Assembly: GCA_023665205.1 (NCBI GenBank)
Contig: JAMPEJ010000005.1
Span: forward strand, 10,331-74,330
Reading direction: 5' to 3'
DNA from: Corallococcus sp.
Lineage (GTDB): Bacteria > Bacillota > Clostridia > Christensenellales > CAG-314
DNA: 64,000 nucleotides
The first letter of the stretch is position 1, and every line of letters starts with the position of its first letter. Under the pieces are notes generated by a model. The model had not been told where the DNA came from. It ran no database searches and saw only the letters and a list, made by a program, of their open reading frames with translations. Position numbers and translations under genes: made by a program. Positions 10,204 to 53,279 of this stretch are shown piece after piece.

Positions 10204-10557
10204 TCAAGACAAATCCGGACGTAAAATTGCCGCGTCGCCGAGATACACAGGGATAAGAGTCGAACTTTGTTCCGTTTCCGCAAACACCGCCGCACGTATG
10301 CAAAAGGGTAGCATGCCTACAACAGACATTTCCTGCGAACACATAAAAGCGACGTTATCCATACAAAATTCCCTTCTTACGGCGGTTGCCGGATTAGCCG
10401 CGTCAAGATCGCGCGTTACGGTAAAAAATATCGCAGATACGTTTTTGTTTTCCAAACGGTTGCGGGAAAGGATTTCCCCGATCAATCGGGAAGCGTTCTG
10501 TGAGATACTTTCCGCCGTATTTTGAGCGCATACGGCGCCGCGGACGATTTTTAACAT
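10204..10557 (-). CDS. aroH: Chorismate mutase, AroH class
   Basis: VRGA, FTVTRDLDA..PA, EM.V.G....CIR, VYLG.A..LRPDL. Confidence 0.93.
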   Translation of the reverse strand: MLKIVRGAVCAQNTAESISQNASRLIGEILSRNRLENKNVSAIFFTVTRDLDAANPATAVRREFCMDNVAFMCSQEMSVVGMLPFCIRAAVFAETEQSSTLIPVYLGDAAILRPDLS

Positions 10558-48626: not shown

Positions 48627-49706
48627 CTATTCCACCTCGTCGTTATCGAACATACCGCTTGCCATAGCCGCGCTGTAAGACTTGACGTCGATTTTCCAAC
48701 CGGTAAGACGCGCCGCCAAACGGGCGTTCTGCCCCTCCTTGCCGATAGCTAAGGAAAGTTTTTCGTCAGGAACAACGACTTTAGCTTCTTTGGCTTCTTC
48801 ATCCGCCTGCACGATAAGAACCTTGGCGGGAGAAAGCGCGCGGGCAATGTAGTCCAAGACGTCGCTGCTCCAAGGAATGATATCTATTTTTTCGCCGCCG
48901 ATCTCCGAAACGATGGCATTTACGCGCATACCTTTGTTGCCTACGCAAGCGCCCACTGCGTCCACTTCGGGATCGGTAGAATACACCGCCATTTTTGTGC
49001 GGAAACCGGGCTCGCGCACAATGCTTTTTATCTGTACGATGTCGGCACGGATTTCGGGGACCTCGTTTTCAAACAAGCGCTTGATAAATACGTAACTTGC
49101 GCGTGACAAAATGACCTGAGTTCCGCCCACGCTGTCGCGCACGCGTTTGACAAGCACTTTGATACGATCTCCGGGATGATACTTTTCTCCGGGGATCTGT
49201 TCAGACACTGACAAAACGCCTTCGGTACCGCTTTTGCCTACTTCTACGAACACCGTACCGTCGTCCTTTACTCGGGTAACGATACCGACGATAAGTTCGC
49301 TTTCCTTATCGGCGAACTGACTGTAAGTAACGTCCTTTTCCGCCTGATGCAAACTGTTCATGATAACCTGACGGGCATTTTGCGCGGCGATACGGCCGAA
49401 AGTGCGCGGGTCGATTTCGGTAAGAACTTCGTCGCCGAGTTTATACGACTTTTTGATTTCGCGCGCGTCGGTCAAGGCAATTTCCTTTTCCGGTATTTCC
49501 ACTTCTTCCACAACAGTTTTGCTGATGTATGCGCGGATAGTAAATTTGTCCGGATTGGTTTTGACCACCACGTTGGAGGCTTCGCCGAAGTTCTTTTTGC
49601 AAGCGATAGCAAGCGCCGTTTCCAACGACTCTATCACCTTTTCCTTGGCTATGCCCTTTTCTCTTTCCAGTTCGTCCAAAGCGAGAAAAAACTCTTTGCT
49701 TGTCAT
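48627..49706 (-). CDS. nusA: Transcription termination/antitermination factor NusA
   Basis: [48 protein letters not shown]. Confidence 0.99.
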
Positions 49707-49942: not shown

Positions 49943-50398
49943 CTAAAACTCGATTATCGGCAACACCTGTGCGGTTTCCTTTTTGACAAACGTTATCTCG
50001 GTTTTGCCTACGTCGATCGCAAACGTCTCGTCGTCATACTTCGTCAACACGCCGTCAAAAGTCTTTTTGCCGTCCATAGGCTTGTAAAGTTTGACCTTTA
50101 TTTTTTTACCCAAGTTGCGTTTATAATCCCAATCCAATTTCAGAGGACGATCCAGCCCGGGCGACGACACGTTGAGAGTGTAGGCCGTATCTATCGGATC
50201 CAGTTCGTCCAAAGGAGCGTCTATCGCTCGGTGCAAAGCTTCGCAATCGTTGATCGTAACTCCGCCTTCTTTGTCGATAATAACGGTCAAATTCATTCCG
50301 TCAAACTTTTTGGCATACTCCACTTCCAACACCGTCAAACCAAGTTGAGCGGCAATCGGTTCTATAAGCCGCAAGACGCTTTCGGATACTTTCCCCAC
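49943..50398 (-). CDS. rimP: Ribosome maturation factor RimP
   Basis: IDK.GG...DC, LD..DPI...Y.L.VSSPGLDRPL; GTG start with GGAGGT SD. Confidence 0.96.
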   Translation of the reverse strand: MGKVSESVLRLIEPIAAQLGLTVLEVEYAKKFDGMNLTVIIDKEGGVTINDCEALHRAIDAPLDELDPIDTAYTLNVSSPGLDRPLKLDWDYKRNLGKKIKVKLYKPMDGKKTFDGVLTKYDDETFAIDVGKTEITFVKKETAQVLPIIEF

Positions 50399-50419
50399 TG
50401 CAACCTCCGTTACATTAAA

Positions 50420-50448
50420 GTGAGAGCAGAGAAATCCCCCGCTCTCAC
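50420..50448 (-). promoter_or_regulatory. rimP leader hairpin (attenuator-like)
   Basis: GUGAGAGCGGGG-AUUU-CUCUGCUCUCAC followed by UUU in the rimP 5' UTR. Confidence 0.65.
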
Positions 50449-50539
50449 CGTAGTATAAACTAATTAAACTAGGCGAAAAAGTTGCCGCTGTGCCGCGATT
50501 GATATACGCGAAGATACGCACGCAACTCTGTGTAATGTG

Positions 50540-50568
50540 ATTATATCACAATACGGCGACGTTGACAA
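50540..50568 (-). promoter_or_regulatory. sigma-A promoter of the rimP-nusA-infB operon
   Basis: TTGTCA-N17-TATAAT with TGn. Confidence 0.75.
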
Positions 50569-50586: not shown

Positions 50587-52233
50587 TTACTTTGCGCGCT
50601 CGGACAAAACGTCAATACATTCGGCAACGGCAGACGCTATCTCGACGCTTGCGTTAGACGTTTTGTAGGAAACTTTGCAAACCCGAGCAACGTCTTCCAA
50701 CTTGGCGCAATTGGGTTTTTGCGCAAAATCGCTGTGATCGAACAACTGCGACAAAATTTCGTTCTGATTTGCAATTTCGTTGTTAAAGTTGAAACCCAAC
50801 GGCGCGCCGTAGTAGTTGAACAAAGCCAAAAGCGGCGGCAAATCGGCGCCGATCAAAGTCGCTCCGTGTAAAAACTTATATAAGTCCGGAATAATCTCCG
50901 TAAGCGTAGGACAAAGTGCCAAATCGCGAACGTCGACTTTTGCCGCGGCTAGTTGCTGCTGTGTAAGGGGAAGCTCCGGTTCTACGTTGGTAAAGAATTT
51001 TTCCGAAGCGTGTCCGCCCGTGATTTTTACGGCGCAAAGGGAGTAGACTTTATCTTTAGTAACGGAAAAGCCCGTTGTGTTTGCGTACAGCACTGCGTAA
51101 GTTTTACCGGACAACACGGAATCCACCGATTTTTGCGTTTGGGTAAAATCCATTTGACGGTAGCGACGAACAGGTACCGGCTGTATCAACACGTACTGAT
51201 CGGGCACGCCGCGCTCAAACGTAGGTTGTGTTGAAATAGGCATGATACGACACTTGGAAATATCGTACACCTGCAATTCCAAACTTTCGGAAAAATTGCT
51301 GTACACCGCCTTGCCGCGCGCCACGACCTCCAAGCCGTTGGCAAGAAACATATACTTTTTCAGTTTGTTTTCATTTGCGACTGCGCGCTTTTTGGACAGC
51401 GTATGCACTTCGGAATCCGGCTTGTCGCTTTCGCGGCGCAAAATTTCAAAGTCCTGCGTCTGCAAGCGTATAAAAGTTACGCAAGGCATAGTCGCTCCGC
51501 TGTCATCCGTCAGGCTGAATTTACAAATTTTAAGATTAGGGTTGCTTTTTACGTCGCGAATGGTTTTGCCGGATATTCTTCCGCAAACGACGCACGTATC
51601 CATGGGTTTACGAACGTCGCAAATATACATAGGCTTGGTCAAAACTTCCTTGCCTATGTATTTTTCCAAATCCGCAACGTCAAAATAACGGCGAGGCTTT
51701 AGCATTTCCTTATTTATGGCAAGCTGCACCAATCGCTCCTGTTGTTCTTTCAGGTTGGATGCCGGTTGAAAATCCGGATCGACGCACACTGCAAATTGCA
51801 CGGCAAAACTTGTGTAATCGGCAAAAAACCGCGTCAGCTCGTCCAAAAACCCGTCCGCCTCCATATTCCGCTTGACTGTCGGAGACACGCGAAACAATAC
51901 GGAAAATCCTTCGTCCGAAACCTCTACGGAGACGTTATCCGGTTTGAGATTGGCAAAAAGCGGATAACGTTTTTTCAGCACGTCCAAAACCGACGCACGT
52001 AGACTTACAGGATTAAACTTATCGTTGACAAGCATGATTTCGTATCTGTAACCGGTAGGAATCGTTGCGGCAACAGCCTCTCGAATAGCGTTTTGGGTAG
52101 GCTTGTCCACGCGGTCGAAATCGGGATAAGATACAGTACATGTAACCTTTTTGGCAATTTTGTCCACTTTTATGTCCCTTACGCGTAACGCCTGCATATC
52201 AGGGAATTTTTGCAAAAGACGGTCTATTATCAT
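50587..52233 (-). CDS. PolC-derived protein: N-terminal domain, OB fold and inactive DEDDh exonuclease; no PHP or polymerase domain
   Basis: OB motifs IGK.V...P..I.D, F.LTDD.G, G..V.ARG; exonuclease fold TYAVLYANTTGFS..D......AVKI..G; located at the polC position; ATGA-coupled to ispG. Confidence 0.75.
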   Translation of the reverse strand: MIIDRLLQKFPDMQALRVRDIKVDKIAKKVTCTVSYPDFDRVDKPTQNAIREAVAATIPTGYRYEIMLVNDKFNPVSLRASVLDVLKKRYPLFANLKPDNVSVEVSDEGFSVLFRVSPTVKRNMEADGFLDELTRFFADYTSFAVQFAVCVDPDFQPASNLKEQQERLVQLAINKEMLKPRRYFDVADLEKYIGKEVLTKPMYICDVRKPMDTCVVCGRISGKTIRDVKSNPNLKICKFSLTDDSGATMPCVTFIRLQTQDFEILRRESDKPDSEVHTLSKKRAVANENKLKKYMFLANGLEVVARGKAVYSNFSESLELQVYDISKCRIMPISTQPTFERGVPDQYVLIQPVPVRRYRQMDFTQTQKSVDSVLSGKTYAVLYANTTGFSVTKDKVYSLCAVKITGGHASEKFFTNVEPELPLTQQQLAAAKVDVRDLALCPTLTEIIPDLYKFLHGATLIGADLPPLLALFNYYGAPLGFNFNNEIANQNEILSQLFDHSDFAQKPNCAKLEDVARVCKVSYKTSNASVEIASAVAECIDVLSERAK

Positions 52234-53279
52234 TTAAGTGCACCGAGGAGCATATCTATCTCCTTTTTGAAAATCTGTACGCCGTCGGACGCGTCGACCG
52301 TTTTGTATCGCGCGCCTTTTTTGAAAAACACAAACTTGCCGCCCATGCCTGCCAAGCCCAAGTCTGCATCGGCGCACTCTCCCGGTCCGTTGACTTCACA
52401 GCCCATAACCGCAATTTTTACCGGTTTATCTATATCCTTTACGTAGTCGTAAATTTCGGCGGCAACGGCTTCCAAATCGATACTGCAACGGCCGCACTTA
52501 GGGCAGGAAACAAATTCTACGCCTTGTTTCAGCCCCACAAAACGCAAAATTTCTTTGGCGGCAATCACCTCGTCTACGGGGTTTCCCGTTAGCGACACGC
52601 GGATAGTATCCCCAATGCCGTCGAGCAGCAAACTACCTATTCCTATAGCGTTTTTTATTACGCCCTGAGGAGCAGGACCGGCTTCCGTCACGCCCAAGTG
52701 TATCGGATAGGAAAATCTGTCGAAAATCATGCGGTTGAGTTTGACGGTTTCCTTAACGTCGCTGCTTTTTGCCGAGAGAACGATACTGTAAAAACCGCGC
52801 CGTTCGAACAGCGAAATAAATTCACCTAGACTTTCCACAAGAGCCTGCGCTTTGTCGCCGCCGCAACGCGCAAGCCAATCACGGTTTACCGAGCCGCCGT
52901 TGACGCCCAAGCGCACCAGGGCGTTATGCGACTTAGCGCAATCGATAACTCTGTCCAGTTGCGTTTGCGGCACGTTGCCCGGATTTAAGCGTATCTTGTC
53001 GCAGCCCGCCTCTATTGCCGCAACGGCAAGGCGCGCGTCAAAATGTATATCGGCGACAAGAGGCAGCGTCGGAAACATTTGACGAACCTTTGCAAAAGAT
53101 AAAACGTGCTGCAAATTGGGCACGGCAATACGAACGATATCGCACCCGCTTAAAATAAGCGAGCGGATTTGTTCCGCAGTACCGTCAACGTCCGTCACGG
53201 GCAAATTCGTCATAGATTGCACCGTAATGCGTCCGTCTCCGAATATCAAGTTGTTGTTGCCTTCTATAAGTTTTTTCAT
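52230..53279 (-). CDS. ispG: HMBPP synthase IspG
   Basis: VQSMTN, ADIHF, R.NPGN, HLGVTEAG, GIGDTIRVSLT, CPKCGR, MGC.VNGPGE. Confidence 0.98.
   Translation of the reverse strand: MKKLIEGNNNLIFGDGRITVQSMTNLPVTDVDGTAEQIRSLILSGCDIVRIAVPNLQHVLSFAKVRQMFPTLPLVADIHFDARLAVAAIEAGCDKIRLNPGNVPQTQLDRVIDCAKSHNALVRLGVNGGSVNRDWLARCGGDKAQALVESLGEFISLFERRGFYSIVLSAKSSDVKETVKLNRMIFDRFSYPIHLGVTEAGPAPQGVIKNAIGIGSLLLDGIGDTIRVSLTGNPVDEVIAAKEILRFVGLKQGVEFVSCPKCGRCSIDLEAVAAEIYDYVKDIDKPVKIAVMGCEVNGPGECADADLGLAGMGGKFVFFKKGARYKTVDASDGVQIFKKEIDMLLGALK

Follow-up and report, generated by a model that had tools for sequence, protein, structure and literature searches.

What occupies the polC locus in a clostridial lineage that has no PolC, and which part of the work of that replicase does it still carry out? 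The question is raised by a stretch of 64,000 nucleotides (the window; positions 10,331 to 74,330 of contig JAMPEJ010000005.1, assembly GCA_023665205.1, deposited as Corallococcus sp.), in which a gene of 548 codons, here called the short form, stands where related genomes encode PolC. The short form descends from PolC: it shares the locus and has a homologous N-terminal domain, OB fold, and exonuclease fold. It is best explained, at a probability of about 55%, as a PolC-derived accessory subunit of a replisome whose only replicative polymerase is DnaE1, a subunit that is non-catalytic in this genome and would bind DnaE1 and the sliding clamp (DnaN). Papers cited by PMC number are drawn on through excerpts of their text, and statements that rest on them hold for those excerpts.

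The short form begins with ATG, ends with TAA, and is read without an internal stop. Its ATG overlaps the TGA of ispG (ATGA), and between its own stop and rimP lies a promoter-like site that consists of TTGTCA, a 17-nucleotide spacer, and TATAAT with an upstream TG, matching the consensus at 11 of 12 positions. The order of genes, whose names were assigned from their translations, is rpsB-tsf-pyrH-frr-uppS-cdsA-dxr-rseP-ispG-[short form]-rimP-nusA-infB-...-truB-ribF on the minus strand. Sampled genomes, families, and genera of the order carry G-, f-, and g-numbers, in which G000 is the target genome and genus g1 of family f1 the target's genus. The arrangement ispG-[short form]-rimP-nusA is found in G000 and in five other PolC-less families, and G033 shows ispG-polC-rimP-nusA with a PolC of 1441 aa. 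The short form is hence placed as PolC genes are, upstream of rimP-nusA-infB.

An earlier note on this DNA, made from the sequence alone, had described an intact 548-aa frame without frameshift at the polC locus, coupled to ispG and directly upstream of the rimP promoter, in which PolC-like N-terminal and OB regions lead past a missing PHP motif into an exonuclease domain with replaced motifs, where the frame stops. Each element of this description is borne out by the comparisons reported here; the strand, which it left unsaid, is minus.

The domains were assigned from profiles and folds, because Pfam matches nothing over the whole protein. NCBIfam returns DEDDh and PolC matches below threshold only (residues 365-508), and a sequence search of the PDB finds the exonuclease domain of Thermotoga maritima PolC at E 1e-4. 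The AlphaFold2 model, built on 150 relatives, has a mean predicted local distance difference test score (pLDDT) of 94.2 and no segment below 50. The region before the PHP domain in 21 PolCs of the order aligns with the short-form family over 280 columns (hhalign 99.6%, E 6e-25).

The N-terminal domain aligns with the same 21 PolCs when it is taken alone (hhalign 96.6%, E 6e-10, 136 columns), and folded alone it reaches a pLDDT of 92.8. In its structure search the best matches are KH-type domains: the second subdomain resembles the type II KH domain of Era (Z 9.2, root-mean-square deviation (rmsd) 2.1, 79 aligned; second match Z 8.0) and also S3 and RbfA, and DnaA domain I follows at Z 6.7-6.9, all of these Z values being middling. 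Domain V of tau, which is said to be related to the PolC N-terminal domain according to the title of one FEBS J 2011 paper, was not among the 50 matches listed; that title is taken from its citation in PMC3919608. The comparison with PolC itself was made by profiles, since solved PolC structures do not resolve the N-terminal 175 residues (PMC12592400). Two KH-like subdomains have been predicted for the N-terminal domain of PolC (PMC3919608); the matches of the short form agree with this, and the KH-like fold is seen, at middling Z, for the second of its two subdomains.

The OB fold is of the PolC type. Its residues 201-332 superpose on residues 233-331 of Geobacillus kaustophilus PolC (3f2b/3f2c) with Z 13.5 and an rmsd of 1.6 Å over 99 aligned residues, and hhalign places it with the PolCs of the order (99.1%, E 1e-18). 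A helical hairpin (model helices 262-268 and 273-295) is inserted in it. In an alignment of 28 rows this insertion occurs in f1 g1 and f1 g18 only, two genera with a dead exonuclease site, and is absent from f1 g19 and from PolC; families f22 and f23 have unrelated insertions at the same loop. Neither ELHxHT nor any other PHP sequence is present in the short form. In PolC the exonuclease domain interrupts the PHP domain; here a 44-residue linker leads from the OB fold to the exonuclease fold, and nothing follows that fold. The Pol III core (palm, thumb, fingers, and catalytic aspartates) and the helix-hairpin-helix (HhH) domain are likewise absent from the short form, and the PolC profiles score far below their cut-offs on it (TIGR01405, 22-23 bits against 1043; PRK00448, 28 against 873).

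The C-terminal domain has a DnaQ-like fold, with Z between 16.5 and 19.2. The highest value belongs to the DinG exonuclease of Staphylococcus aureus, followed by Escherichia coli epsilon (17.5), and residues 373-548 of the model align with residues 421-593 of Enterococcus faecium PolC at Z 16.5 (rmsd 3.2, 168 aligned). The protein ends with the last helix of this fold. Model residues 378-545 align to epsilon 7-180 and residues 545-548 to epsilon 180-183, where the short form stops, leaving it without the C-terminal peptide by which epsilon binds the PHP domain of alpha.

The target assembly (1.49 Mb, 16 contigs, 96% complete) contains a single match to the alpha subunit of Pol III, a DnaE of 1188 aa on contig 9, which aligns from its start with the DnaE1 of Taq and Mycobacterium tuberculosis and is DnaE1. 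Among sequencing runs, two from a single study contain this stretch of DNA as contigs, and no RNA run with it is listed. Profiles of PolC score in G000 only on this DnaE, on the short form, and on one other exonuclease, none of them above the cut-off. That PolC is split, or was missed by the assembly, with its PHP-polymerase part encoded elsewhere, is hardly credible: the polC locus itself is assembled and occupied, the PolC profile detects no second Pol III core in G000, in 25 genomes of its genus, or among the order's 101 PolC-less genomes introduced below, and G000 and these 101 yield no PolC-type PHP-polymerase fragment. What room there is for this explanation comes from the draft state of the assembly and from the existence of PolCs without an exonuclease domain in the phylum. 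Of the two replication schemes proposed in the earlier note, DnaE alone stands, and a split PolC finds no support.

The short form is not peculiar to one genome. Forty-six close relatives of 534-558 aa share 39-79% identity with it, and an exhaustive search yields 216 cluster representatives at E <= 1e-10, mostly of 500-550 aa. In the target's genus the short form is present, and PolC missing, in all 25 genomes; 24 of them have an intact frame, and the 25th has it broken up at contig ends, with one TAG. The draw also covered 16 other families: 11 encode a PolC of 1416-1474 aa, and five have instead a protein of 508-534 aa between ispG and rimP, the polC position of G033. The target itself matches the profile of the short-form family, whose members have about 490-560 aa, at E 4e-166 over positions 1-511, and it combines full length, the polC locus, and the absence of PolC from its genome.

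An even draw of 201 genomes from the order, all at least 90% complete, divides into 100 with PolC and 101 without. Of the 101, 94 have the short form (E <= 1e-60), its frame being about 490-600 aa long or interrupted by the end of a contig. Of the 100 none has it, and 15 profile matches there fall inside PolC. The seven unmatched genomes all belong to f25, and the one that was checked at a laxer threshold has a divergent form of 505 aa (E 2e-52). By family the separation is complete: 17 are wholly PolC-less, 21 wholly PolC-bearing, and none is mixed. The remnant at the polC locus that the earlier note had recognized is real; what that note missed is that its architecture is not confined to a single gene. 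About half of the order has the short form in place of PolC, for the most part with an intact catalytic site. Genome sizes were noted alongside: within the order, PolC-less genomes are on the small side (0.8-2.3 Mb, f32 about 0.8-1.2), and PolC-bearing ones have 1.3-4.5 Mb, all rounded figures.

Beyond the order, a search of 40 further families of the phylum turned up no short form. Eleven of the 40 genomes sampled there, all at least 95% complete, have neither PolC nor the short form (G224, G230, G231, G232, G237, G241, G244, G248, G250, G252, and G255); PolC has therefore been lost repeatedly in the phylum without leaving a remnant. A side observation concerns the 29 that do have PolC. In 19 of them it measures about 1130-1280 aa and lacks the exonuclease domain, the profile match running from about position 371 on, a type of PolC that is mentioned in PMC3919608. 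At least three of these keep the N-terminal domain and the OB fold (for example G257:C1:189515-193129 and G245:C27:26731-30396), which makes them the complement of the short form.

The short form arose once. In a quick maximum-likelihood tree of 55 rows with Shimodaira-Hasegawa-like approximate likelihood ratio test (SH-aLRT) support, from which the fragment f11_G098 and the PolCs L072 and L148 (uncut by the motif filters) were left out, the 26 short forms fall on one side of a branch with a support of 100. Family f1 resolves as (g19,(g18,g1)) with supports of 98 and 99, and f25 forms a separate clade with a support of 100. For a truncation of polC in place, the main argument is the shared locus.

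None of the five catalytic positions of a DEDDh exonuclease is kept in the target. Exo I (FDxETTG) reads VLYANTTG, with tyrosine (Y383) for the aspartate and asparagine (N385) for the glutamate; in the Exo II equivalent of HNxxFD, which reads LIGADLPPLL with GADLPPLL at its core, the H-N...F-D residues are lost and leucine stands, by reading of the alignment, at the position of the catalytic aspartate; and Exo III (HRAxxD, H-x4-D) is absent when the protein is aligned with PolC and active relatives. Most of the family differs from the target in this respect. Among 150 aligned members, 105 keep the aspartate and glutamate of Exo I, 104 of these with all three motifs, and 45 do not. The site is intact in f8, f11, f13, f16, f17, f19, f20, f22, f23, f28, f32, f34, f35, f38, and f1 g19, and dead in f1 g1, f1 g18, and f25. 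As most short forms are catalytically intact, the dead site is a secondary event, and since f1 branches as an intact g19 beside the dead pair g18 and g1, with f25 as a separate dead clade, the active site was lost at least twice, once in g1 with its sister genus g18 and once in f25.

Could the domain still cleave DNA through other residues? Candidates exist, as N385, T387, G388, D394, E446, and D450 are invariant or nearly so in the dead group, whose exonuclease domain is under selection (see below). The idea is nonetheless highly improbable. The five DEDDh positions are mostly taken by residues that are no metal ligands (Y/H/F, N, and L, without an H-x4-D), and we know of no DEDDh enzyme that works without the two carboxylates of Exo I. 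D450 is invariant in all 150 short forms, and because D450 and K453-F454 are conserved in active relatives as well, they do not form a substitute site. A helix motif common to the family, E-[IV]-[IL]-x-D-[LF]-[YF]-K-F (residues 446-454; 50872-50898, minus strand), is recorded here in its own right: D-x-Y-K-F is not seen in two aligned PolCs, and the helix is a candidate family-specific interface.

The dead copies are under purifying selection and are not decaying. The ratio of nonsynonymous to synonymous substitution rates (dN/dS), calculated by the Nei-Gojobori method for four pairs of dead-type orthologues with dS < 1, is 0.053, 0.127, 0.065, and 0.054 over the whole gene, 0.077-0.133 in the exonuclease domain, and 0.018-0.050 in the OB fold. 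This and the count of intact and dead forms given above are the ortholog checks that had been proposed with the initial description, and neutral decay is not what they show. A pseudogene or neutral polC remnant whose frame is open by chance is accordingly next to impossible, even though the catalytic residues are lost and no gene of the locus evolves faster: barring a misalignment artefact, dN/dS values of 0.05-0.13 in all domains refute it, and length is held at 534-558 aa down to 39% identity in the 46 relatives, the frame is intact in nearly every genome of the genus, and the fold is predicted with confidence.

If the protein is neither a nuclease nor debris, its partners become the question. 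The flexible linker of the family carries a motif, Q-x-[NDS]-[LFMI]-[FL], which as Q-x-x-L-F has the form of bacterial clamp-binding motifs. The glutamine (Q360 in the target) is at least 90% conserved across 150 sequences and is found in 97 of the 105 intact members and in all 45 dead ones. The pattern Q..[LFMIV][FLYM] occupies one aligned place of the linker in 92 of 105 intact relatives and in 8 of 45 dead ones; dead members keep a hydrophobic fourth position (Q..[LFMIV]) in 44 of 45 cases, and the fifth is F or L in few. The target's copy, QMDFT, has threonine at the fifth position, where the family consensus has F or L, and is a putative clamp site. A predicted complex of two DnaN chains with residues 331-548 of the short form scores 0.47-0.51, and one unrelated-partner control scores 0.43, a margin that counts neither for nor against binding. 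In E. coli, the clamp is bound by residues 920-924 of alpha and by a motif of epsilon that adjoins its catalytic domain (PMC4703070).

DnaE1 brings features of its own. The motif GQ[MIVFL]S[LIF]F is present, with variants, at about residue 934 in 20 of 20 DnaE1 sequences and reads GQMSIFD at residues 933-939. A variable, charged insertion of 4-25 residues is found in the thumb in 9 of 10 PolC-less genomes (it is absent in f17) and in 0 of 10 PolC-bearing ones; in the DnaE of G000 (contig C9) it lies at about residues 480-495 and aligns to E. coli alpha at about 465-480, inside the thumb (433-509). It is this thumb that the catalytic domain of epsilon contacts while wedged against the clamp (PMC4703070). 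The nine metal ligands of the PHP domain, HHDHEHCDH, are all present in the DnaE1 of G000, as they are in all 20 sequences, and this signature has been used to call the PHP proofreader active (PMC12926913). A search of G000 for a second DEDDh proofreader returns a single RNase_T-family match, the N terminus of a fusion protein of 732 aa, which is unlikely to be the replicative epsilon. The fusion (L063; G000:C10:191625-193823, minus strand, outside the window) was looked at for itself: its C-terminal half carries what appears to be a sugar-kinase/hexokinase-like ATPase motif, and an exonuclease-kinase-like fusion would be odd.

These observations can be joined in the reading of the short form as a DnaE1 accessory subunit. 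It would have begun as a part of PolC that served DnaE, a proofreader together with modules that bind single-stranded DNA (ssDNA) or protein. The polC gene lost both halves of the PHP domain and the whole polymerase in place; what stayed is the KH-like N-terminal domain with the OB fold, which a short linker connects to the DEDDh fold. This part was kept when the polymerase was lost, and it replaces PolC in a large block of families that replicate with DnaE1 alone. The ancestral form most likely partnered DnaE1 as an epsilon-like proofreader, positioned at the primer end between the clamp and the polymerase, because most families keep the intact site and the Q-x-x-L-F motif. As clostridial DnaE1 appears to have an intact PHP proofreader, the DEDDh activity may have been redundant and could die, as it did in the target genus with its sister genus and independently in f25 while selection continued. 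Proofreading would now fall to the PHP exonuclease of DnaE1, and the short form would keep a non-catalytic job in the DnaE1 complex, either structural or processivity support or the handling of ssDNA or 3' ends by the OB and KH-like domains and the empty exonuclease groove. Like the earlier note, which had suggested a non-catalytic ssDNA-binding or replisome adaptor, we infer this role.

A bolder version, which we hold tentatively and think doubtful as a whole, is an undescribed Pol III core. In a large clade of gut Clostridia, DnaE1 would be the sole polymerase and the polymerase-less protein derived from PolC its third-party subunit. The lineage-specific insertion in the thumb would serve as docking site for the exonuclease fold, and the linker motif would occupy the second pocket of the clamp; Candidatus (Ca.) Fimimonas, the name under which close relatives of the target are recorded, and f25 would proofread with the PHP domain and retain the dead exonuclease as a structural wedge.

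Several points weigh against the accessory-subunit reading. Across 36 loci the short form is the fastest-evolving gene of its neighborhood, with a median identity to G000 of 41.8% compared with 60.1 for RseP, 62.7 for IspG, 68.4 for RimP, and 84.3 for NusA, and DnaN is 71-85% identical within the genus; the short form is constrained, but less so than core parts of the replisome, and such a rate is unusual for a part of this kind. The 11 of 40 families of the phylum with neither PolC nor the short form indicate that DnaE1 can work without it. In the target's subgroup the last hydrophobic residue of the linker motif is lost, and clamp binding may therefore be weakened or lost there. PolC-bearing relatives have a PHP signature that is just as intact, so this signature alone does not account for the death of DEDDh sites in certain lineages only. 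The PolC-less families may be one clade, in which case the thumb insertion and the short form count as one correlated event. The quick tree does not place the attachment of the short-form clade among the PolCs, inside or outside those of the order itself. Finally, binding to DnaE1 or the clamp is, for every member of the family, a prediction.

Some of the same evidence would suit a PolC-derived protein that works outside the replisome, as a clamp-associated or free binder of ssDNA or 3' ends in repair, recombination, or regulation, and that in the target genus does not cleave and protects or senses DNA ends. We regard this as unlikely, yet as a rival to be reckoned with. OB and KH-like domains are general nucleic-acid- and protein-binding modules, and clamp-binding motifs occur in repair proteins too; the fast evolution relative to DnaN and NusA and the PolC-less Clostridia that do without the short form fit it as well. 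It accounts less readily for the retention of the short form at the polC place, coupled to ispG, in every matched PolC-less genome of the order, and for its perfect exclusion of PolC, which is expected if a part of PolC's own job is kept. In addition, DnaE is acted on in vitro by a PolC that has no polymerase activity (PMC5627055).

Compared with PolC, the short form has a homologous series of domains, N-terminal domain, OB fold, and DEDDh fold, arranged alike, and it occupies the same place between ispG and rimP; it differs in the absence of PHP, palm, thumb, fingers, and HhH, in its dead exonuclease, and in its size, about 38% of the length of PolC. The active short forms of sister families share its architecture, locus, and clade, but they keep the DEDDh residues and mostly the canonical Q-x-x-L-F, lack the helical insertion in the OB fold, and measure about 505-535 aa. 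In public records, intact forms are named 'exonuclease domain-containing protein' or 'DNA polymerase III epsilon subunit family exonuclease', and dead forms are unnamed.

Three further systems offer parallels. E. coli epsilon (DnaQ) is a stand-alone DEDDh fold beside a clamp-binding-type motif, and, lodged as a wedge between the clamp and alpha's thumb, it has a structural role too (PMC4703070). In contrast to epsilon, the motif of the short form precedes the fold, the C-terminal tail that binds alpha is lacking, and KH-like and OB domains are added; the target moreover has no catalytic residues, and the short form derives from PolC, not from dnaQ. The engineered PolCpol- of Bacillus subtilis stimulates DnaE and proofreads in trans (PMC5627055), and it is likewise a PolC without polymerase activity that works with DnaE; it is, however, a full-length laboratory point mutant whose partner is DnaE3 and whose exonuclease is active. 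In PolA2/APEX and PolB2 a DnaQ-like fold is also kept without its active site, and a QxxLF motif has been reported in a loop of the vestigial exonuclease domain of PolA2 (PMC12926913). The dead domain there belongs to an active polymerase; in the short form the polymerase itself is gone.

Surveys of bacterial replicases distinguish three sets, DnaE1 alone, PolC with DnaE1, and PolC with DnaE3; they list some Clostridia as DnaE1-only and do not settle which part PolC plays beside DnaE1 in Clostridia (PMC3919608; PMC12926913). Both removed truncated homologues or those without a polymerase site before analysis, so a polymerase-less remnant would have escaped them. Literature searches, with the surveys covered in excerpts, yielded no description of such a remnant of PolC, although the supplementary tables of the surveys may list homologues of this kind. 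The order thus provides a natural deletion experiment: in 17 of its families the polymerase of PolC is gone and the front parts are under selection at the old locus. In these Clostridia DnaE1 suffices as replicase, and PolC's front third serves a separate function, one that outlasted the loss of exonuclease catalysis twice independently. Were the bolder version above to hold, nature would have demonstrated that a proofreading subunit can cease to be catalytic and still keep its non-catalytic role. Short forms of both types, intact and dead, together with the DnaE1 and clamp that belong to them, form an expressible set for probing contacts between PolC modules and DnaE. The loss may also matter for antibiotics aimed at PolC, ibezapolstat (PMC12592400) among them, since the drug target would be lacking in these gut lineages.

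Table 1. Features of the short-form gene and its neighbors, in positions of the window
Feature	Residues	Position	Strand	Remark
Short form, whole gene (N-terminal domain, OB fold, linker, exonuclease fold)	1-548	50587..52233	minus	stop codon included
N-terminal domain	1-175	51709..52233	minus	homologue of the PolC N-terminal domain; made of two alpha/beta subdomains, of which the second is type II KH-like
OB fold, PolC type	185-332	51238..51681	minus	from structure superposition and hhalign
Helical hairpin inserted in OB fold, about 30 residues	about 258-287	51373..51462	minus	from an alignment of 28 rows
Linker, 44 residues	333-376	51106..51237	minus	replaces the N-terminal half of the PolC PHP domain; pLDDT 73-77 in parts
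QMDFT	360-364	51142..51156	minus	degenerate form of the clamp-binding-like motif seen across the family
DEDDh exonuclease fold without catalytic residues	377-548	50590..51105	minus	from structure matches and motif alignments
Exo I remnant VLYANTTG	381-388	51070..51093	minus	equivalent of FDxETTG
Exo II remnant LIGADLPPLL	460-469	50827..50856	minus	equivalent of HNxxFD
ispG		52230..53279	minus	upstream gene; stop overlaps the short-form start
Promoter-like site		50540..50568	minus	between the short-form stop and rimP; consensus match only
rimP		49943..50521	minus	true start probably further downstream in frame
nusA		48627-49706	minus	after rimP, then infB

The records of the close relatives come from animal guts and are filed as Ca. 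Fimimonas or as uncultured Christensenellaceae, Oscillospiraceae, and Clostridia. In the NCBI taxonomy Ca. Fimimonas (taxid 2840648) is placed under Myxococcaceae, and one close metagenome-assembled genome is titled Corallococcus sp. This placement of Ca. Fimimonas looks mistaken, because Bacillota is indicated by the order of genes, by the PolC-type remnant, and by the remaining close records.

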